64,000 nucleotides of DNA from Candidatus Woesearchaeota archaeon (GTDB taxonomy: Archaea > Nanobdellota > Nanobdellia > Pacearchaeales > GW2011-AR1). Positions 3,394 to 35,382 of this stretch are shown piece after piece. The notes under the pieces are model-generated. The model was not told the origin of the DNA, ran no database searches, and saw only the letters and a program-made list of their open reading frames with translations. The DNA lies in contig CAZDXC010000001.1 in NCBI GenBank assembly GCA_964509675.1, forward strand, positions 6,336 through 70,335, given 5' to 3'. Positions within the stretch are counted from its first letter, which is position 1; each line of letters starts with the position of its first letter. The position numbers and the translations under genes are program-made.

Positions 3394-3770
3394 GTAAGTT
3401 GGGTAGTTAACTTTCGGGATTCAATCCTTGAATGGATAAGTGATAAAATTATAATCGCTGAGTTCTGAGGAAGGTCCGCCCACCCACAACTTTTGTTTGT
3501 GACAAAGTCATTCATGAAAATGAACCATTGTGAAATGGAGCTCTGTTACAGAAACGACACAGCTTTCACTGAGCTATGAAATTTGCATTGAGCTTAGAAG
3601 TGAAGGATTTGATGAAACGAGCATCTTGACTGGTGCAAGGTCGTGTCTCTGAATTCGACGAGGTTTTCACCTTCGGCGAAAAGGGACCAAAAGAACCGCA
3701 TAGTTGAATGTTAACACGTTCTGTTCTTGCAAAGAGAAGAACGACAAAAGGTGGCCTATTCCCAACTTAC
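3394..3770 (+). ncRNA. rnpB: archaeal RNase P RNA
   Basis: P1 GTAAGTTGGG/CCCAACTTAC; conserved GAGGAAGGTCCGCCCACC, ACAGAAACGACAC, TGAAACG...GGTGCAAG, CCGCATAGTTGAATG and ACAAAAGGTGGCCTAT. Confidence 0.9.
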
Positions 3771-20094: not shown

Positions 20095-20231
20095 TGGACC
20101 TGTCGGGAGTCGAACCCGAATCTCATCCGTTCTCGGCGATAAGTTCCGCCAATTGCCCTATACGGGTTGACCGTCAAGGGTGGAACCCTTACGCGTGCAA
20201 GGGACGTATTCTACCATTGGACTACAGGCCC
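20095..20231 (-). tRNA. tRNA-Ala (TGC) with 66-nt intron at 37/38 (intron 20130-20195)
   Basis: Acceptor GGGCCTG/CAGGTCC, anticodon stem CGTCC/GGATG. BHB: CTTG pairs with intron CGAG, bulges CAC and AAC, h' GCG/CGC. Confidence 0.93.
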
Positions 20232-26919: not shown

Positions 26920-27614
26920 TTTCCTATATCCTTCAATGCCTTTTTTTGAGCCTCGTAAATTTCCTTTCCTGCTTTTTTTGCAAGTTCAATGGCTTCATTT
27001 AATTGTTTTCTTGTTATTTTTCCATCTAATTGAATATGGCTTATTTTTCCGTCTCCTGTTATAGTTATTGGAATGTCTGTTGCACCTTCCCCTTCTTCCC
27101 AGTCTTCTTCTTTTTTTATCAAATCCATAACTAATTGCTTGTCTAATTTCCCTATTGAAACGCTCTGGACAAGACTTTTCATTGGTATGCCTGCGTGGGC
27201 AAGAGCCATTGCAGCAGCATTTATCCCGGCACATCTTGTTGAGGCATTTGCCTGCAAAATATTTATGTGAACATCAATAACAGTCCCCTGAAATTCATCT
27301 ATCATTACAACTGGCTGCAAAGCCCATTCTGTTATTTTGCTTATCTCAGTGCTTCTTCTGCTTGGTCCGGGTCTTATCCTTTCTGTAACAGAAAAGCTCA
27401 ACATATTGTAATTGCATCTCAATGTTCCTCTTTCAGGATCTTGTGCATGCTGAGGATGCATTTTTTTAGGTCCGTAAACAGCAGCGATTGCAACAGTATC
27501 TCCGAATGCAAACATTGCACTTCCATCTGCGTTTGGTACAATTCCAACTTTTGCAGTTATCTTTCTTAATTCGTTTGGCTTTCTTCCATCCGGCCGTTTG
27601 AATTCTTTTGTCAT
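26916..27614 (-). CDS. rrp41: exosome subunit Rrp41
   Basis: RPDGR...ELR, ADGSA, YGPK, RPGPSRRS.EIS, ANASTRCAGINAA. Confidence 0.95.
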   Translation of the reverse strand: MTKEFKRPDGRKPNELRKITAKVGIVPNADGSAMFAFGDTVAIAAVYGPKKMHPQHAQDPERGTLRCNYNMLSFSVTERIRPGPSRRSTEISKITEWALQPVVMIDEFQGTVIDVHINILQANASTRCAGINAAAMALAHAGIPMKSLVQSVSIGKLDKQLVMDLIKKEEDWEEGEGATDIPITITGDGKISHIQLDGKITRKQLNEAIELAKKAGKEIYEAQKKALKDIGK

Positions 27615-28288
27615 TTTCCTTTCTCCTTTTCAAACCATTCCTTCATTTCATCTGTCAATCCAGAGACAAAAGACCTTTCTGCTATGTAATGGATTGCTTT
27701 TTTGGCAAATAATTCATCTTCAATTCCATCTCCACTAATCCATATGAATCCATTTTGTCCGACTGTAATCCTGCATTTTGTTTCATCTTTTATCAGAGAT
27801 ATCATGCTTCCTTCTTTTCCTATAATTCTCGGAACCCTGTTTGGATTTACACTTATTATCATTCCCTTGTCCAGCCTTCCAAGCCCTTTCAGTTTTATTG
27901 TCAAATCTATCCCTCTTTTGTTTATTGAATTTATTTTTGCAACGAGCATATCTCCTATAGCCAATACTTCTTCCAAGTCATCTTTATTAACATATCTCGG
28001 AACTTCCATTAACGAAAGAAAAGCATTTTCAGGAGTATTTATATCCACAACCCATCCATTGAAAGTTATATTTTCCACTTTTCCTATAACAACATTTCCT
28101 CTCCTTGGCTGATAAACTCCTGATAGTGGAATTACCTTAACCAGTTTTTTTGATTCTTCTGCCAATCCGTATCTTATAGCGATTATTTTGTCCTCTCTTT
28201 TTTCTGTTCCCTCTCCCGGAAGATAATCGTCTCCTTCAAATATTGTTTCTCCTGGTATTACAATTTTTCTTGAATATTCTTCTGTCAT
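27611..28288 (-). CDS. rrp4: exosome RNA-binding subunit Rrp4
   Basis: VIPGE, Y.PRRG.VVIG, S1 plus KH (VPRIIGKEGSMI, VGQNG.IW). Confidence 0.93.
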   Translation of the reverse strand: MTEEYSRKIVIPGETIFEGDDYLPGEGTEKREDKIIAIRYGLAEESKKLVKVIPLSGVYQPRRGNVVIGKVENITFNGWVVDINTPENAFLSLMEVPRYVNKDDLEEVLAIGDMLVAKINSINKRGIDLTIKLKGLGRLDKGMIISVNPNRVPRIIGKEGSMISLIKDETKCRITVGQNGFIWISGDGIEDELFAKKAIHYIAERSFVSGLTDEMKEWFEKEKGK

Positions 28289-28959
28289 TCTTCCTTAATC
28301 TCCTCTGTTATTGCACTTCCATGTGTGGCTGAATTTAACTTGTCATAAAAATCCATGACAATTCCAGAAGGAATGTTTATCACAACCTCCAAACTTCCGT
28401 CATTCATCCAGTTTTCCCCTTCTTTATATGGATTTATTATGCTATAAACCTTTCCTGTATGTATTGCGGGAATTTTTATCTTTATTTTCTTGGTTTCTAT
28501 CTTTATAGGAATTATCTTACTTACTTCAGCCAATATGTCCTTTATTTGGTTTTCAATTGGAACATTTTTTATGTTGACATGAGCCTCTTCTAATGCCCGG
28601 TATATTCTTTCAGGAGTATGTGGATTGCCTGTCTGCGGATTTATTGTATTTCTTGAAAGAAAATCAACGATTTGTTTTAATTTTTTTTCTCTTTCCTCAT
28701 CTCTGTATTCCTGAGTAACCAAAACTTCTCCTTCTTTCACTATTTTCTTAATAATTTCTGAAGAATCTGTAGTTCCAAAAGCAGATTCAAGTTCAGAATT
28801 TGATGCGACTTCTCCTCTTTTTGAGTTCGTGAAAATTTTGTCATTTTCTGCTTCAAAAGAAGAAGATTGCCCTTTCTTAAATTTCAGTGCTTCATCCAAA
28901 TCAACCATAATCTCAAAATGCTTTCCCCCTTGTTTTATTCTTGCTATTGTAGTGGTCAT
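28285..28959 (-). CDS. SBDS family ribosome assembly factor
   Basis: ARIKQGGKHFEIMVD, F.T.D...I...I..EGE..T.EYR, NPQT..PH.PERI. Confidence 0.93.
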   Translation of the reverse strand: MTTTIARIKQGGKHFEIMVDLDEALKFKKGQSSSFEAENDKIFTNSKRGEVASNSELESAFGTTDSSEIIKKIVKEGEVLVTQEYRDEEREKKLKQIVDFLSRNTINPQTGNPHTPERIYRALEEAHVNIKNVPIENQIKDILAEVSKIIPIKIETKKIKIKIPAIHTGKVYSIINPYKEGENWMNDGSLEVVINIPSGIVMDFYDKLNSATHGSAITEEIKEE

Positions 28960-29681
28960 TTTATAAATTCTTGTAATTGCTCTCCGTAAAATCTTTTTAA
29001 CTCTCCGGTTTCACTTTTAATATAAACCAATTCAAATTTGTTGATGTTGAATTTCTTTTCTTCCAATTCTTTTAATATGTCCAATGAAAGTTTAACTCCT
29101 TTTTTTATTGTTAAATCTGGTTTGTATCTTTCTCTTAGTTTTTCTTTTATCTTATCGTCATTTTCTCCGATGGCATTTGCATGATATGCCAGATAATTTC
29201 CAGTTACATCGCTTGTATATAATTCTGGTTTTTTGTTGTTAATTCCTGCAATCATTAAAGAGACGCCAAAAGGCCTTGCACCTCCGTATTGGGTAAACTG
29301 TTGTTTTAAATTTGACAAGTCTTTTATTATTAATTCTGGCTCAATCGGAGAATCATAAGTAACTCTATGTTGCTGAGCAAGTACTTGTGCTCTTTCTATC
29401 AAAACTCTCGCATCAGAAATAATCCCTGCAACACTTGATATTATATGAGAATCAATTTCGTAAATTTTATTAGCTGAACTTTGAACAATCAATTTGTCTT
29501 CTGTTCTCAAATCTGCGATTATAAAAACACCGTCAGAACAAACTATTCCAATGCTTGCACTTCCAAGCCTCACTGTCTTTTCTGCATACTCAACTTGTAA
29601 GAGGTGTCCTTGGGGTGAGAACATAGTGGCAGTTCTGTCATAACCCATTGCTTGATGTTGTATGTCTAAAGGTATATCCAT
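28956..29681 (-). CDS. psmA: proteasome alpha subunit (probable start ATG 29681)
   Basis: MGYDRTATMFSPQGHLLQVEYA, RPFGVSL, AIG. Confidence 0.96.
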   Translation of the reverse strand: MDIPLDIQHQAMGYDRTATMFSPQGHLLQVEYAEKTVRLGSASIGIVCSDGVFIIADLRTEDKLIVQSSANKIYEIDSHIISSVAGIISDARVLIERAQVLAQQHRVTYDSPIEPELIIKDLSNLKQQFTQYGGARPFGVSLMIAGINNKKPELYTSDVTGNYLAYHANAIGENDDKIKEKLRERYKPDLTIKKGVKLSLDILKELEEKKFNINKFELVYIKSETGELKRFYGEQLQEFIK

Positions 29682-29701
29682 TATGCAAAATCTCCTTTCC
29701 T

Positions 29702-29740
29702 TTTTCAGTGTTTCGCGATGCGTATGCGTAATCGCATTTT
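29702..29740. repeat. monomeric member of the 33-bp-unit repeat family
   Basis: TTTTCAGTGTTTCGCGATGCGTATGCGTAATCGCATTTT in the psmA leader. Confidence 0.7.
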
Positions 29741-29906
29741 GTATCCACAGGCTTCCTGCCGAGGACATTGAAAAATTTCTTATTTTTCATATTTTCCTAA
29801 ATTATAGAGAAATTTATAATCGTTTTAATTTCCTTTTCTCTCCAAAAAACTTATGTTATCACCATTTAAAAGGTTTTCGTAGGTTAATTATTTCTTAATC
29901 TTCCAG

Positions 29907-30200
29907 TCAAAATTTTTTTGATTGCAAAGCCCTAAGGCTTTTCAAAGTTCCAGAGACTCTTTTAACTTCTATCTTTTTTGGCCAAACACATAATGCTGCT
30001 CTCACATGGTTCAGAGTTTCGCGGTTTATGCATATTATTGCGGAATCTTTATTTTCCTTAATCCATTCCAAACCTGTCTTTGACATGCCTAAAACCCCTA
30101 TAAAATCTAAAATTGCTTTCTCTACATTTTTCCTTAGTTCTTTTCCTTCTACCAGCAGATATCTCCTATTTTCCCTCATTGATGGTTTGAGTGATTTCAT
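29907..30200 (-). CDS. rnp2: RNase P protein Pop5/Rpp14
   Basis: KPSMRE.RRYL...G..G...GIICINRE.L.HVRAAL...VSGTLK; in the conserved position upstream of psmA. Confidence 0.85.
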   Translation of the reverse strand: MKSLKPSMRENRRYLLVEGKELRKNVEKAILDFIGVLGMSKTGLEWIKENKDSAIICINRETLNHVRAALCVWPKKIEVKRVSGTLKSLRALQSKKF

Positions 30201-31047
30201 GATACAAATTATCCAAAGGACTTTTTATATTTATCAGATTTGGAGAAGCCATGTGAACATAAATTAATGAAGTTTCTGGAGATTTATGCCCAAGCATTGA
30301 TTGAACATTTGCGATATCATAACCATTTTCAATTAAGTGTGTTGCAAAACTATGTCTTAATGTATGCGGATGAATTTCCTTCCAATTTTTCAAGTGCGCC
30401 TCCTTTGAGGCATTTCTAATTATTTTTTGAATGCTTCTAACCGAGTATTTTTTTGTTTCTGTTGCTTTTAAATAAAAAATCATCTTCATTTAAACTTTCT
30501 AATTCAATTAAATTTATTATTTTTTCTTTGACAATCTTTGATAAGACTATTAGTCTATCTTTTCCTCCTTTTCCATTCCGCACATAACCATAATTTTTGT
30601 TTAATTCCAAGTCTTTAATTTTAATATTTAATAATTCAGAAACCCTCAACCCACTTCCATAAAGCAACTCAATCATCAACCTATGCTTCCAATTAGCAAT
30701 AGCATTTAATAATCTCTTAATTTCTTCTTTATTTAAGACAACTGGGAGTTTTTTTGGTGTTTTTGAGCATTTAATATCAATCCACATTTTTTTTTCCTTA
30801 AAACATTTTCAAATAAAAATTTAATTGCCATATGATAAGTATTCATTGTGTTTCCTGATAAATTTCTGTAAGAAAGATATTCTAAAAACAAGCAAACATC
30901 TTTTTTTGAGATGTATCTTAAATCTTTTTTAGACCAATTCAGGAACTTGTGAATGCAATGAAGATATGTGTTAACTGTTCTTGGAGATAGTCTTCTGCGC
31001 CGGCATTCTTTTATTATCTTTGAATCCAAATTTGTTGGAATCCCCAT
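30166..31047 (-). pseudogene. tyrosine recombinase (integron-integrase-like, SAM-like N-domain) split by two compensating frameshifts
   Basis: Three ORF pieces join into about 293 aa: LSPRTVNTY, KLPVVL, LLYGSGLRVSE, GKGGKDR, HTLRHSFATHL, LGH, TSLIY. Slips at A9 (30787-30795) and A7 (30448-30454). Confidence 0.92.
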
Positions 31048-31143
31048 AATACCAAAATTAATTAACAGTTTAAATAAATGCCTTGAAACTTTGTAATAAA
31101 AACAAAAAAGTTTGATACTGAATAAAAAACTGGGACTTTCAGC

Positions 31144-31192
31144 CTTTTAACCCACCAAATTTAAAAGAGTTCGTTAAAAGTCTGTTAGTTTC
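31144..31192 (+). other. putative primary attachment site (attI-like) of the cassette array
   Basis: AAAAGTCTG/TTAGTTTC is the degenerate first junction; CTTTTAAC (31144-31151) / GTTAAAAG (31173-31180) is an inverted pair just upstream. Confidence 0.55.
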
Positions 31193-31207
31193 AATAAGCG
31201 GGCGGGC

Positions 31208-31567
31208 TCACTGCTTTAATTTGTGCAATTCATCCACAGAAATAAAATCATCTGCTAAACAATCTAATTCTGGTTGGTTTGTTTTTTCGAGAAAATAGAT
31301 TTTTTTACCCACACCTTTTGCATATCCAATTTCAATCTTAACAGAATTGCCGAAATAACCTGTTGGATTTACTACCAAAACTGATTTTGATTTGTCTATT
31401 TTTTCAAAATGATCTGCTACCAGTTTTGGAACCATATCTGGAGTTTCCAATTCTTTAGGTAAATCCATTACAGGCAAAAGGTGTGGAATATCTAATTCTT
31501 TCAGAATCTTAGCTACTTCTTCTATTTTCTCTTTAAATTTAATACTTGCACTTATACAAACAACCAT
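31208..31567 (-). CDS. cassette 1: nucleoside deoxyribosyltransferase/deoxyribohydrolase-like protein
   Basis: HFEKIDKSKSVLVVN..GYFGNSVKIEIGYA...GKKI matches the NDT-fold pattern. Confidence 0.6.
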   Translation of the reverse strand: MVVCISASIKFKEKIEEVAKILKELDIPHLLPVMDLPKELETPDMVPKLVADHFEKIDKSKSVLVVNPTGYFGNSVKIEIGYAKGVGKKIYFLEKTNQPELDCLADDFISVDELHKLKQ

Positions 31568-31711
31568 AATAAAATATGAATTGCATAATTATTAATAAAT
31601 TTATCGCCCGCCCGCTTACTCGAGATTTTTCCCTTCGGGAACATTGCATTAAAATCTCGTCCTCATTTCATTCGGAGAAACTAACAGGGGTTAAACTCAA
31701 TCATAGAAAAA

Positions 31712-31975
31712 TTATTGAGGAGATAAATGTACCTCAAGATTATCTTTGTGTATTGCAAGGTTTAGAGATTCTCTCTCACCCGCTTTTTTTTCATCAACTC
31801 TTTTAACTTCTAGAGTTGCTTCCAAACCTCTCCCTGGTTCAACTCCCAAACTTTCGACTTCAAAAATAGCGGGTTGACCATCTTCACTTTGCCAACCATA
31901 GGCAAAATATTTCCCTTGCAATCCTCCGTCCAAGATATAATCTTGTATTGTTTTATCTCCTTTTGTGTATTCCAT
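31712..31975 (-). CDS. cassette 2: hypothetical protein
   Basis: 87 aa; stop codon lies inside the cassette inverted repeat. Confidence 0.65.
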   Translation of the reverse strand: MEYTKGDKTIQDYILDGGLQGKYFAYGWQSEDGQPAIFEVESLGVEPGRGLEATLEVKRVDEKKAGERESLNLAIHKDNLEVHLSPQ

Positions 31976-32147
31976 TTTTATCTCAAATATATTACAAAAT
32001 GGAAAAAGATTGTCATATTTAAAGATATGTGTTATTTAAAATAATTTTTCTATGACTTCTCCCTTCGGTCGACCACGTTGCACTCTCACTCCACTTCGTT
32101 CCGTTCGGGGAGTTTAACAGGGGTTAGTAGAAATAATTTTTAGAGGC

Positions 32148-32414
32148 TCAATGTTTATTTAAAAAATACGCAATAATTACAGATGCTGCTCCAAATAAAA
32201 AGACTATATTTGATATTATTATTGGATAATTCATTATAGAAATGCCATATATTAACCATATTGATATTCCAACCGCAAAAAATAAATAAGTTATTAATGA
32301 AACATCTTTTGCACTTTTGCGTTTGAAAATTTTATAGGTTTGAGTAAAATATCCAAAACTCATCATGGTACCAAATATAGTTGTAATTATTGCTAATGCA
32401 TCCATATAATTCAA
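32148..32414 (-). CDS. cassette 3: SemiSWEET/PQ-loop family transporter
   Basis: 3 TM; Q.YKIFKRKSAKDVSL, GI.IWLIYG, PIIISN. Confidence 0.85.
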   Translation of the reverse strand: MNYMDALAIITTIFGTMMSFGYFTQTYKIFKRKSAKDVSLITYLFFAVGISIWLIYGISIMNYPIIISNIVFLFGAASVIIAYFLNKH

Positions 32415-32915
32415 TTAATCTTTATTATTTATTAATTTATCGCCTCTAAAAATTACTCTTCGCCAGCCCTTCGGAACGTTGCACTCTGGCTCGGTTTTTT
32501 CTACGAAAAAACTCTACTAACAGGGGTTATACGATTTTCTTCCAAATTTTCTTGGCAGAAAACTTCGTATAACAAAAAAATTGTTGGTATCAATTACATA
32601 TAATATTTATGAAACTTTCTGATAAAATAATACAGATTTCATAAATCCCAATTATTGATCCTAAATTAAATTCTATAACAGAAATATCTTGATTATCCTA
32701 TTGTTAACCCAAATTTAAATAGTATTTCTGAGTCAAAATATTCAGAAAGTTTTTCTAATTTTAATTTCTAAAACCTTTTTAAACTATTCTTTCCAATTAA
32801 ATTTATAAAAGAGATGAATTTGAGGTTAAGATGATTCGGATAAATAGACGAGCAAAGCGAGGCAATTTTCTCCTTACGAACTTTAGTTCATTATCTCGTC
32901 GAATTCAATAACACG

Positions 32916-34265
32916 ATGGAAATTTATACAATTGGCGGATTTAATGAAGTTGGAAAAAATATGACTGTTGTTAAAACAGGAGAAGACGCCTTTATTTTTG
33001 ATATGGGTGTTTTTCTTCCTGCAATAGTTGAACTTCAGGAACAGGAAGAAAACAGCAGACAACAAGTTTATTCTGAGAAAAAATTGAGAAGCATAGGCGC
33101 GTTCCCTGATGATTTGCTTCTTGATAAGTTCGGATTAAGAAATAAAGTAAGAGCAGTGTTTCTTGGACATTCTCACCTGGACCATATAGGTGCTGCTCCC
33201 TATATTGCCTATAGATATAAGGCTCCCCTTATAGGAACTCCATTCACAATAAAAGTATTGAAAAAAATTTTAGAAGATGAAAAAATAAGAATCCCCAATG
33301 AATTAAAAACAATAAATCCAAATTCATCTTTTTTTGTGAAAGGAAAATCGGGAAGTTATCGGGTTGATTTCATAAACATAACACATTCTACACTTCAGAC
33401 ATCAATGCTTGCACTGCATACACCAGAAGGAATTTTTTTGTACGCAAATGATTTCAAATTAGACAACACTCCTGTTTTGGGTTTACCTCCAAATTATGGC
33501 TTACTGAAAGAACTTTCAAAAAAAGGAATTAAAGCCTTGGTGGTTGATTCTCTTTATTCAGGAGTGGAAAGAAAAACTCCAAGCGAAAAAATAGCAAGAG
33601 CACTTGTGGAAGAAGTTTTGCTTACAATTAAAAATGAAAATTCTGCCATTTTTGTAACGACTTTCTCCTCTCACATAGCGAGATTAAAAAGCATAGTGGA
33701 TTTTGGGAAAAAATTAAACAGAAAAATTTATTTCATGGGGAGAAGTATGAGAAAGTATGTTTCTTCTGCGATGGAAATTGGCATGTGCCCCTTTCAGAAA
33801 GATATTCAGTTGATAAGTTATAAGAGACAGGTTGATTCTGTTCTAAAGAAAGTTGAGAGAGACAGAAAAAATTATTTAATAGTCTGCACAGGGCATCAGG
33901 GAGAGCCAGGAAGCATTATGGACAGATTATCAAGAAAAAAACTTCCTTTTAATTTTCATCCAGGAGATAATGCGGTTTTTTCTTCAAGAACAATCCCGAC
34001 TCCTGTGAATGCAGCAAATAAAGAACAACTGGATAAGAGACTGAAAAAAGCAGGGGTGAGAATATTTGATAATATCCATGTTTCAGGACATGCAGGAAGA
34101 GAAGATTTGAGGGATTTAATTTCAATGCTTAATCCAGAACACATAATTCCTGCTCATGGTTCTTCAATGCAACTTATACCAATGATAGAATTAGCGAGAG
34201 AAATAGGCTATAAACCCGGAAAAAACTGTCATTTACTTCAAAATGGACAGAGGCTTAGATTATAA
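32916..34265 (+). CDS. rnj: ribonuclease J (MBL/beta-CASP)
   Basis: GGFNEVGKNMT, HSHLDHIGA, HST, DFKLD, FSSHIARL, GHQGEP, HVSGHA, PAHG. Confidence 0.95.
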   Translation: MEIYTIGGFNEVGKNMTVVKTGEDAFIFDMGVFLPAIVELQEQEENSRQQVYSEKKLRSIGAFPDDLLLDKFGLRNKVRAVFLGHSHLDHIGAAPYIAYRYKAPLIGTPFTIKVLKKILEDEKIRIPNELKTINPNSSFFVKGKSGSYRVDFINITHSTLQTSMLALHTPEGIFLYANDFKLDNTPVLGLPPNYGLLKELSKKGIKALVVDSLYSGVERKTPSEKIARALVEEVLLTIKNENSAIFVTTFSSHIARLKSIVDFGKKLNRKIYFMGRSMRKYVSSAMEIGMCPFQKDIQLISYKRQVDSVLKKVERDRKNYLIVCTGHQGEPGSIMDRLSRKKLPFNFHPGDNAVFSSRTIPTPVNAANKEQLDKRLKKAGVRIFDNIHVSGHAGREDLRDLISMLNPEHIIPAHGSSMQLIPMIELAREIGYKPGKNCHLLQNGQRLRL

Positions 34266-34298
34266 AAATTTTATAAATAATATATTTCTTATTATAAA

Positions 34299-34838
34299 AT
34301 GCCGAATGAAGAAATTATTGGCGGATTAAAATCTGCCTTGGAGAGAGGGCAATCCTTGCAGGAAGCAATGATGTCTCTTTTTAATTCAGGTTATAAAAAA
34401 GAAGAAATTGAAGAAGCTGCAAGAAATCTTATGCAACAACGTGCTGAAATCCAAGCACAGCCACAACCGCCGATAAAAACTCCCGAAACTTCTCAGATTA
34501 AACAAACCCCAAAAACTCTTCCCTCCAAAAAAGAAACTTTCCAAAAACCACAGCCAAAGTCAATCCCCCAACAACAAATACCTTCACCTCCAAAGAAAAC
34601 AATTTCACAAAAAAAAGAAACTGAAACTCAAAAAACTAAACCCCAACAGGTAAGTAAACAAAAACCAGTTCAAAAAATTTCAAGTTATGAACAACCCAAA
34701 CAAAAAGAAAAGAAACCCAAGGAAAAAATCATAATTTTCACTCTAATATTTTTGCTTGTTTTTCTTGTTGGACTTTTGGGGGTAATTTTCTTGTTTAAGC
34801 AACAGTTAATTAATTTTTTCAGTAATTTTTTCGGATAA
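34299..34838 (+). CDS. hypothetical protein with P/Q/K-rich linker and C-terminal TM
   Basis: N-terminal helical LERG.SL.EA..SL.NSGY..EEI, low-complexity linker, TM anchor. Confidence 0.7.
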   Translation: MPNEEIIGGLKSALERGQSLQEAMMSLFNSGYKKEEIEEAARNLMQQRAEIQAQPQPPIKTPETSQIKQTPKTLPSKKETFQKPQPKSIPQQQIPSPPKKTISQKKETETQKTKPQQVSKQKPVQKISSYEQPKQKEKKPKEKIIIFTLIFLLVFLVGLLGVIFLFKQQLINFFSNFFG

Positions 34839-34839
34839 A

Positions 34840-35382
34840 ATGTCAATTTATGCTCCTGCAGAGGATTCTTTTTTGATGTCAAGAATTTTGAAAGAGCGAG
34901 TCCCGAATTTAATTAAGCAAAATCCAAATTTGAGATTTTTGGAAATAGGCGCTGGATCAGGAATACATCTTCAGACTGCCTTGAATTTGGGAATAAAGAA
35001 AGAAAATATCTTTTCTTCTGATATGGATGAGAGGGCGGTTTCTCACTGCAATGTTCTGGGATTTAATTGTATTCATTCTGATTTGTTTGAGAATATAAAA
35101 AATAAATATGATTTAATAATTTTTAACCCTCCTTATCTTCCAGAAGATGCAAGAGAGCCAGAAAACTCAAGAAAGGATACAACAGCAGGAAAAAAGGGAA
35201 ATGAAATAATCATTAGGTTTTTAAAGCAGGCAAGAAAACGCTTAAACAAAAAAGGAAAAATATTTTTAATAACTTCTTCTCTCTCAGAAAATATTGATTT
35301 TGGAAATTTTGGCTATCATGCAAAAGAAATTGGTTGCGAGAATCTTTTCTTTGAGAGGTTATGTATCTGGGAACTAATATGA
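34840..35382 (+). CDS. HemK2/PrmC-like protein methyltransferase
   Basis: IY.PAEDSFL, LEIGAGSG, IFNPPYLP. Confidence 0.88.
   Translation: MSIYAPAEDSFLMSRILKERVPNLIKQNPNLRFLEIGAGSGIHLQTALNLGIKKENIFSSDMDERAVSHCNVLGFNCIHSDLFENIKNKYDLIIFNPPYLPEDAREPENSRKDTTAGKKGNEIIIRFLKQARKRLNKKGKIFLITSSLSENIDFGNFGYHAKEIGCENLFFERLCIWELI

Follow-up and report, generated by a model that had tools for sequence, protein, structure and literature searches.

Is an array of one-gene units beside a tyrosine recombinase gene in an archaeon an integron, a by-product of chromosomal Xer recombination or a gene-capture system of another kind? This question was raised by a 64,000-nucleotide stretch of DNA from a Candidatus Woesearchaeota archaeon (GenBank assembly GCA_964509675.1, contig CAZDXC010000001.1, positions 6,336 to 70,335; termed the window), for which a preliminary description had proposed a gene capture and shuffling platform that was parallel to integrons and mechanistically distinct from them. 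The analyses described here indicated a site-specific gene-cassette platform in which a conserved core site of the Xer type is situated ∼120 bp from the gene for a XerA-family recombinase, a reading to which we assign a probability of about 75%. The anatomy of the platform is conserved in many DPANN genomes of the Pacearchaeota/Woesearchaeota type, and cassettes have been gained or lost precisely at N/TTA, where the slash marks the crossover. The proposed parallel was supported by the conservation of the site, by these insertion/deletion differences and by the enzyme family; the platform may be either a dedicated one or the XerA/dif system of the cell.

The exact core TAACAGGGGTTA occurs at positions 31682, 32115 and 32518 and nowhere else in the window. 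The region from 31185 to 32526 consists of three one-gene units that measure 506, 433 and 403 bp, as the preliminary description had reported. A single minus-strand open reading frame (ORF) is present in each (119, 87 and 85 to 88 amino acids, respectively), and computation of the pairing between the 9-bp arms (GTTAGTTTC/GAAACTAAC, GTTAAACTC/GAGTTTAAC and GTTAGTAGA/TCTACTAAC) detected perfect complementarity inside each unit and none across the junctions. The complementarity was thus as claimed, but a better reading has arms of 8 bp flanking a spacer of 6 nt and a crossover where the spacer meets TTA: each unit begins with TTA and 5 nt and ends with the exact complement of these 5 nt followed by TAA, and then by CAGGGG. 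A second perfect inverted repeat (13, 16 and 14 bp in the three units) starts two bases inside the first arm, and the terminal inverted repeats of each unit total 23 to 27 bp. Between the distal copy of the second repeat and the distal arm sits a conserved element of ∼55 nt, which comprises the box ACGTTGCACTCT (in cassette 1, ACATTGCATT) and variable small hairpins.

Cassette 1 (31185 to 31690, plus strand) has the first arm TTAGTTTC (31185-31192), the second arm TAAGCGGGCGGGC (31195-31207), a minus-strand gene of 119 codons with a weak Pfam match to nucleoside 2-deoxyribosyltransferase-like proteins (31208-31567), the distal second arm (31606-31618), the conserved element (31619-31676), the distal first arm GAAACTAA (31677-31684) and the CAGGGG spacer (31685-31690). 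In cassette 2 (31691 to 32123, plus strand), the first arm TTAAACTC (31691-31698) is followed by a second arm (31701-31716) complementary at 16 of 16 positions to its distal partner (32040-32055); the minus-strand gene (31712-31975), encoding 87 amino acids, belongs to no family, and the conserved element (32056-32109), the distal arm GAGTTTAA (32110-32117) and the CAGGGG spacer (32118-32123) complete the unit. Cassette 3 (32124 to 32526, plus strand) follows the same plan, with TTAGTAGA (32124-32131), a second arm (32134-32147) pairing at 14 of 14 positions with 32442-32455, the conserved element (32456-32512), TCTACTAA (32513-32520) and the CAGGGG spacer (32521-32526). Its minus-strand gene (32148-32405) encodes a SemiSWEET-like membrane protein of the MtN3/PQ-loop family, of 85 amino acids as in the assemblies of two related contigs (L294 and L295; loci of other assemblies carry the prefix L) or of 88 if an alternative TTG start extends the ORF to 32414. 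The array is closed by a fourth unit, a gene-less mini-unit of 52 bp (32527 to 32578, plus strand) made up of TTATACGA (32527-32534), 30 nt, TCGTATAA (32565-32572) and CAAAAA. A related mini-unit lies directly 3′ of the primary site in L259, and TTATACGA arms terminate arrays or follow the primary site in L232, L239 and L244; the mini-unit could be the native right half of the site. TTCG was found to be enriched on the top strand of the conserved elements of the collected cassettes (23 TTCG versus 6 CGAA in 1367 nt; in the window at 31628-31636, 32060-32067 and 32465-32472), with six copies of GCTTCGC and seven of CCTTCGG. Their bottom-strand equivalents are GCGAAGC, which is an unusually stable DNA mini-hairpin, and CCGAAGG, while RNA of the top strand would form UUCG tetraloops; either the DNA or the RNA reading may apply.

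The array begins at an attI-like primary site, consisting of the 11-bp left arm AGTTCGTTAAA and the 6-bp spacer AGTCTG (31168 to 31184, plus strand), with the crossover between 31184 and 31185, ∼120 bp from the start of the recombinase gene. According to the preliminary description, this first junction keeps only G/TT; GTTA is indeed all that it shares with the other junctions, but it also contains a full dif-like half-site plus spacer. A leader (31048 to 31167, plus strand) extends from the start of the recombinase gene to the core site and can be aligned across ∼40 loci. It includes the box AAATTTAAAAGA (31157-31168) and an inverted repeat in which CAGCCTTTTAAC (31140-31151) pairs with GTTAAAAGTCTG (31173-31184). 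Across relatives, ∼110 nt of this leader are conserved, and most copies contain an inverted repeat CAGACTTTTAAC...GTTAAAAGTCTG whose end coincides with the crossover; L121 has ACATATGC...GCATATGT instead, a joint change of the two halves. The leader may serve as a promoter or an accessory site; a search of the leader and the junctions against Rfam, at the gathering threshold and at E ≤ 10, detected no family. The leader and the 11-bp arm with its 6-bp spacer, like the second inverted repeat, the ∼55-nt element and the gene-less unit, had not been noticed in the preliminary description.

The Xer-type form of the core site is apparent from relatives. In site variants with the sequence GTTCGCATAA-AGTCTG-TTA, the 6-bp spacer separates an arm of 11 bp from a right arm of the form TTAnnnnnAAT. 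One contig, L278, carries an empty site, AAAGTTCGTTAAA-AGTCTG-TTCAACGAAATTT, which is a 13-6-13 imperfect palindrome of the dif form (11 of 13 positions complementary) and of which the window retains the left arm and spacer. This palindrome is completed by the native right arm TTCAACGAAAT, which also closes the arrays in L208, L235 and L298. A scan for uninterrupted sites (...CTGTTC) yielded mostly chance bacterial matches and three DPANN contigs, one of them being the empty site of L278.

Two relatives initially exhibited AGTTCGTTAAAAG[TC]CTG/TTA upstream of their recombinase genes with different DNA past the TTA, and GTTCGTTAAAAGNCTG/TTA proved to be common to 14 DPANN genome contigs and ∼40 metagenome contigs, the sequence varying from the base after TTA onward. 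A genome scan with GTTCGTTAAAAGNCTGTTA detected 17 matches, 14 on DPANN contigs and 3 on bacterial contigs (approximately the number expected by chance), and a metagenome scan detected 48 contigs. In ∼30 loci, a homologous recombinase gene (55 to 76% identical) starts ∼120 to 130 nt upstream of the site. The search of DPANN genomes suggested in the preliminary description thus led to homologous recombinases beside the same primary site, with different cassettes obeying the same rule of arms matching within a unit. An earlier scan of the collection with TTGCA-N25-45-core was too unspecific, giving 120 chance matches and nothing related, and a protein-pattern scan of genomes gave L121 as the sole close relative among the matches listed, which ran mostly to bacterial Xer genes, with no synteny to the window. 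The genes neighboring the recombinase differ between relatives (TruB, S27e and AP endonuclease), so that there is little synteny around the platform. Leader and site directly follow an rpl15e-like gene, with no recombinase beside them, in L266, L207 and L254, and have no adjacent recombinase in L209, L230, L235, L249 and L269; in L298 the recombinase is located between rpl15e and the site. Searches of a viral collection for the primary site and for the predicted circle junction of cassette 1 were both negative. A more distant locus, L125 (Nanoarchaeia SMAG_U8166), has AGTGCGCATAA-AAACAG-TTAGGTTCAAT beside a 44%-identical Xer gene, followed by ATTACTCGG, which is similar to the start of the cassette element; its left arm is almost the XerC arm of Escherichia coli dif. 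Gene-adjacent dif-like sites may be common in Nanoarchaeota.

Evidence for mobility came from two pairs of closely related sequences. The exact cassette-3 protein was present on two contigs from sister samples, L294 (SRR14802574) and L295 (SRR14802572). L294 is identical to the window, while L295 is 99.5 to 99.8% identical to both and lacks exactly window positions 31188 to 31689: it reads ...AAAAGTCTG/TTAAACTC, with GTCTG joined directly to TTAAACTC and with cassette 1 and its CAGGGG spacer absent. Similarly, L229 and L211 match at 100% of positions over the recombinase gene and site and at 99% thereafter, and L229 has an additional cassette of 862 bp at the same nucleotide. These two differences place the crossover at or within the TTA after the spacer, and they show that a spacer moves together with the distal cassette end. 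Furthermore, cassettes L246_1, L269_1 and L235_2 share ends that are 84 to 100% identical and have different cargo, as expected if the site module is reused. Of the strain variation anticipated in the preliminary description, what was detected was a difference of exactly one cassette in each of two genome pairs, which records gain or loss of cassettes rather than shuffling.

The primary site carries from zero to six or more differing cassettes of the same build. Walking from the site identified one to three cassettes in ∼17 loci, with the architecture of those in the window and with different sequence and cargo. In general form, a cassette comprises TTA plus 5 nt, AA(T), a second repeat of 9 to 17 bp, cargo, the complementary second repeat, an element of 40 to 70 nt, the complement of the 5 nt plus TAA, and CAnnnn, followed by the next TTA; the reconstituted cassette site is an 8-6-8 structure, TAA-N6-TTA. 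As spacers differ between cassettes, even inside one array (CAGGGG, CAAGGA, CAGCGA, CACTGA, TAGGAA and others), the identical 12-mer of the window is a local feature. The signature put forward in the preliminary description (TAAC-N4-GTTA within a 12-bp core) was therefore not general, and only TAA-CA....-TTA, with the 6-nt spacer otherwise variable, is conserved across genomes. Cassettes range from 120 to 1974 bp and contain zero to two ordinary genes, usually one, with gene-less units among them; none encodes a recombinase. The cargo includes ketopantoate reductase, isochorismatase, YdeI/OmdA, B3/4 domain, DUF5680 and cytidine-deaminase-like proteins, secreted cysteine-rich proteins of ∼470 amino acids and unknown proteins. 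Among 15 gene-bearing cassettes, the genes pointed away from the site in 10 (plus relative to the element) and towards it in 5 (minus); the three genes of the window point towards the site and have AT-rich upstream regions of their own. Integron cassettes, for comparison, mostly lack promoters, share one orientation and are expressed from a promoter of the platform. Upstream of the genes for the ∼470-amino-acid proteins, a motif of ∼40 nt, CCCCGACCACCC[AG]CCCCT[AG]TTAGGAGATGTGTGCTTGG, was present in cassette 3 of L201/L218, in cassette 1 of L203/L208 and again after that array, in the third cassette of L246 and just downstream of the primary site in L297. This motif could be a shared promoter or leader RNA.

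Matching arms are not a product of chance. When arms were swapped between loci, a partner followed by CA was found in 4% of trials, compared with 11 of 33 loci for the observed arms. Across 25 distinct cassettes, 96.5% of arm positions were paired and all 5 variable positions covaried, a count that is partly circular because complementarity had been used to find the ends. Cassettes were also defined independently by the junction motif only (nnnnnTAA[CT]Annnn TT[AC]nnnnn[ACG]AT) in the 8 kb upstream of recombinase genes. In three further recombinase loci, L296 to L298, this motif alone detected 3 (after one false match had been dropped from L296), 4 and 6 same-strand junctions, against 0 or 1 match on the other strand and 0.12 per 10 kb in unrelated DNA. 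Of the 13 cassettes so defined, 6 had exactly complementary arms (expectation, 1/1024 each) and 2 had one mismatch. The same scan of more distant Xer loci, including those of bacteria of the candidate phyla radiation, gave no clear arrays.

The recombinase gene (30166 to 31047, minus strand; ∼293 codons when repaired) was recognized from Pfam Phage_int_SAM_4 and Phage_integrase matches on three ORF fragments. Frame analysis attributed the fragmentation to two frameshifts, both in homopolymer runs: a coding-strand A9 tract at 30787-30795 is one A short (A10 being in frame), and an A7 tract at 30448-30454 has one A extra (A6 being in frame). The two frameshifts cancel each other's shift, and the L238 homologue is likewise interrupted close to residue 200, where the A7 run lies. 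Such tracts may represent slippage-prone regulation, rescue by transcriptional slippage or simple decay. The repaired protein carries the R...K...HxxR...H...Y set, with ∼62 residues between GKGGKDR and HTLRH. Its best NCBIfam match was the XerA_Arch equivalog NF040815, for which the repaired window copy scored 216.7 bits, just under the cutoff of 220, while the intact homologue P0002 scored 228.5 and the L221 copy 224.7. The integron-integrase model TIGR02249 matched at 200 to 212 bits, in two pieces, against a cutoff of 265. VchIntIA was the top sequence match in the PDB, and the alignment of P0002 to this protein (2A3V) splits at 201/243, skipping IntI residues 202 to 242; alignment to the Thermoplasma acidophilum XerA (5HXY) was continuous. 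By sequence, then, the enzyme lacks the IntI-specific insertion of ∼41 residues and is not an IntI, in agreement with what the preliminary description had deduced. Intact close homologues (60 to 78% identical, ∼280 amino acids) are abundant in metagenome-assembled genomes (MAGs) of Pacearchaeota, Woesearchaeota and Nanoarchaeota.

A mechanism can be proposed in which small nonautonomous cassettes (0.12 to 2 kb) would enter serially at the boundary between the spacer and the right arm. A circularized cassette would rebuild its own site, in the order complement of the 5 nt, TAA / CAnnnn / TTA plus 5 nt; the second inverted repeat of 9 to 17 bp would extend this site, with the ∼55-nt element interrupting one side. 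The neighboring XerA-like enzyme, or an intact copy acting in trans, is the likely catalyst, given the linkage in ∼30 loci and the form of the site. As the gene is frameshifted twice in the window, this particular array may be frozen or served in trans. With tyrosine recombinases such as Cre and Xer, the cut falls where arm meets spacer and is made in the strand whose 5′ to 3′ direction leads from the arm into the spacer. A crossover at the right spacer edge would thus imply bottom-strand cleavage at 5′-nnnnnTAA/. Since the spacers of the partners are unrelated (AGTCTG versus CAGGGG, CAAGGA, etc.), a two-step exchange via a homologous overlap is unlikely. By analogy with integron attC × attI recombination and with the XerC-only integration of CTX phage, exchange may involve one strand, with the junction resolved by replication. 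The complementarity specific to each cassette may reflect a folded bottom-strand cassette site, either a hairpin or a four-way structure, in which pairing rather than sequence would matter.

A four-way fold is obtained for the reconstituted circle junction, with a closing stem, two small hairpins and an arm hairpin with the spacer as its loop. Among 7 transition-type mismatches in the arms and second repeats, all were A.C on the top strand and none was G.T (P = 0.016), an asymmetry (G.T wobbles on the bottom strand) that hints at the bottom strand. Raw energies and G.U counts of the conserved element also favored the bottom strand in 16 of 16 cassettes, but composition-controlled z-scores exhibited no excess of strand-specific structure. 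As this control removes the difference, the argument from the conserved element was dropped, and the idea of a folded strand rests on the arm complementarity and the 7 mismatches. Perfect repeats in proximal cassettes and decayed ones in distal cassettes suggest that the repeats are needed for entry and not for residence. A more ambitious version can be put forward only tentatively: a dedicated platform, widespread in Pacearchaeota/Woesearchaeota, may have arisen from XerA independently of integrons, with a paralogous Xer enzyme, its own dif-derived attI and promoter-bearing or promoterless cassettes that would be inserted and excised through shape-recognized, folded bottom-strand sites by one-strand exchange. 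If this were so, the integron principle would have been invented twice, by convergence, and the platform would be a main channel of gene flux for ultra-small archaea.

Several observations weigh against the reading as a cassette platform. Besides the partial circularity of the 25-cassette count and the loss of strand preference under composition control, arms did not match in 5 of the 13 junction-defined cassettes, mostly distal ones in long arrays. No circular cassette or excision junction was observed. The double frameshift is present in both sequenced strains, with the same three fragments in two independent assemblies, and hence the cassette difference between them either predates inactivation of the gene or needs another enzyme. 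Lastly, ∼12 loci carry site and leader with no adjacent recombinase, which suggests either gene loss or second platforms served in trans, as with attC clusters lacking an integrase.

The alternative with the greatest claim to attention, which we consider rather improbable without dismissing it, is that the enzyme is the housekeeping XerA acting at a chromosomal dif beside its own gene, as difSL lies by xerS, and that the cassettes hitch-hike on dimer resolution in the manner of integrative mobile elements exploiting Xer recombination (IMEX). The XerA_Arch equivalog is the best family match and its cutoff is passed by P0002, the recombinase family is highly conserved (60 to 78% identity) in many MAGs, the empty site is a 13-6-13 imperfect palindrome with 11-6-11 variants, the distant Nanoarchaeia gene of L125 also adjoins a site like bacterial dif, and Vibrio is known to have tandem arrays of IMEX at dif. 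Yet a UBA92 MAG has a second XerA, among ribosomal genes, with a better fit to the model (259.8 versus 224.7 bits), and in two MAGs the site occurs twice, on separate contigs (L206/L209 and L277/L279), both of which findings MAG contamination could explain. In addition, the gene is a double-frameshift pseudogene in the organism of the window, genes diverge from the site and the GC skew of the window does not turn there; these site-count, paralogue and skew results rest on MAGs or on the 64-kb window. The choice between the two changes the label of the system, hijacked or dedicated, and not the existence of a cassette system.

An ordinary integron with IntI and attC, like the archaeal integrons reported in 2022, is highly improbable. 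It would account for one-gene units arrayed at an insertion site beside a recombinase gene, for a crossover at N/TT(A) and for the subthreshold TIGR02249 match together with VchIntIA as the top PDB match. That score (200 to 212 against 265) nevertheless falls short, the IntI-specific insertion is absent (the 2A3V alignment being split at 201/243), and the inverse-core and core motifs lie 6 nt apart rather than at the ends of a hairpin of 57 to 141 nt, so that the site is split by integration and not retained at the 3′ end of the cassette. The geometry of AAC and GTT, on which the preliminary description had based its claim that the junctions are not attC, differs accordingly: the two are 4 to 6 nt apart, and the partner of the cassette start adjoins the junction and is not 50 to 140 nt upstream. 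The described archaeal integrons have canonical attC sites and IntIs with an extra domain (Ghaly et al. 2022; PMC9668308). Structures acting in transcripts (processing stems, terminators or regulatory RNA) around fixed chromosomal genes would explain the long 5′/3′ complementarity around each gene and the TTCG excess in the cassette tails (23 versus 6 CGAA) as UUCG tetraloops of plus-strand RNA, the absence of an Rfam match counting neither way. We give this explanation little credence, as whole units are present or absent in DNA at the same nucleotide in two independent genome pairs, genes run in either direction with respect to the element (10 plus and 5 minus), gene-less units exist and the plus-strand arm mismatches are A.C, which RNA of that strand would not tolerate. 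Terminal inverted repeats of 23 to 27 bp on each unit would also suit miniature inverted-repeat transposable elements with a transposase encoded elsewhere, but the repeats are different in every unit and no single transposase could recognize them; there are no target-site duplications, and all insertions, arrayed head to tail in a single orientation, fall on the same nucleotide of one conserved site, which makes such elements a most implausible source. An origin of the palindromes in bulge-helix-bulge splice motifs, hammerhead-type ribozymes or hairpin-telomere replication was also considered and rejected, either for want of the motifs or because the repeat is rendered asymmetric by the conserved element.

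The genes flanking the array diverge, with exosome, proteasome and Rpp14 genes on the minus strand (27611-31047) and RNase J and the following genes on the plus strand (32916-35382), and the array thus occupies a divergent intergenic region, as flanking genes on both sides point away from it. The window is archaeal, containing archaeal 16S and 23S rRNA and RNase P RNA. The 23S rRNA match (16301-19588) spans 3288 nt versus a model of 2987 positions, and the RNase P RNA (3394-3770) spans 377 nt versus 288 positions. A tRNA match of 137 nt between 16S and 23S (20095-20231), not called by ARAGORN, probably contains an intron. Insertions or introns in the stable RNA genes of the window are likely.

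For the capture and stockpiling of genes, integrons are the textbook example, and they are thought to need a special integrase domain and a folded attC. The same logic is found here with an ordinary-looking XerA-type enzyme and dif-like sites, in DPANN archaea, whose genomes are reduced and whose means of gene exchange are poorly understood. If the reading of the locus as a cassette platform is correct, such platforms evolved more than once from Xer stock, DPANN symbionts have a concrete mechanism for turnover of accessory genes, and a new compact pair of recombinase and site would tolerate almost any arm sequence provided that both arms match. The system is also relevant to a possible origin of integrons from Xer/dif.

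Full-text searches of the literature, and reviews of archaeal tyrosine recombinases and of Xer, yielded no description of this arrangement, consistent with its not having been recognized in the preliminary description. The likeness to integrons is extensive: a tyrosine recombinase gene adjoins the primary insertion site (∼120 bp from the recombinase start in ∼30 loci, with single-cassette differences exactly there), the newest cassette is next to that site, and small, mostly single-gene cassettes of unrelated functions form a head-to-tail array with crossover at N/TT. In both, the start of a cassette is complementary to sequence near its end, recognition seems to be based on pairing, and a bottom-strand bias is at least hinted at. 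Unlike integrons, the platform has a XerA-like enzyme without the IntI insertion, and its primary site is of the Xer core type, with an 11-6-11 layout. The cassettes contain an additional long inverted repeat and the conserved element of ∼55 nt; the cassette site is a dif-like palindrome cut at the center and split between the cassette ends, whereas the attC hairpin stays at the 3′ end.

With IMEX (the CTX, TLC and VGJ phages and the gonococcal island), the cassettes share the absence of a recombinase gene, a dif-like site, integration at a Xer core and tandem arrays; CTX phage integrates as a folded single strand by a one-strand exchange that is resolved by replication. In contrast to IMEX, the elements here are gene cassettes of 0.12 to 2 kb with no replication or transfer genes, each has its own perfectly palindromic arms, and they depend on a single archaeal recombinase and on a site that lies beside the recombinase gene and may not be a true dif. 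The dif modules of Acinetobacter (pdif/xrs of Rep_3 plasmids) are likewise small gene modules bounded by 11-6-11 Xer sites. They are plasmid borne and use XerC/XerD, and pdif sites alternate in orientation; the junctions described here all have the same orientation, are served by a single archaeal recombinase, exhibit precise single-unit gain or loss and are chromosomal, beside a recombinase gene and with rRNA, RNase P and ribosomal genes nearby. Pairs of Acinetobacter replicons differ by single modules (PMC13141974), and one study observed no excision as modules (PMC11705084). XerS/difSL and XerH/difH resemble the platform in having a single Xer recombinase. The general form of core sites for dimer resolution by XerA, with two inverted arms of ∼11 bp around a spacer of 6 to 8 bp, recurs in the empty site of L278 and in the left arm and spacer of the window. 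The XerS core site also adjoins its own gene. The difSL and difH sites differ, however, in that they function in the resolution of chromosome dimers, and no accumulation of gene cassettes at them is reported. The platform is thus integron-like in its logic, IMEX/dif-like in the chemistry of its sites and like the Acinetobacter modules in size, while departing from the defining features of each.

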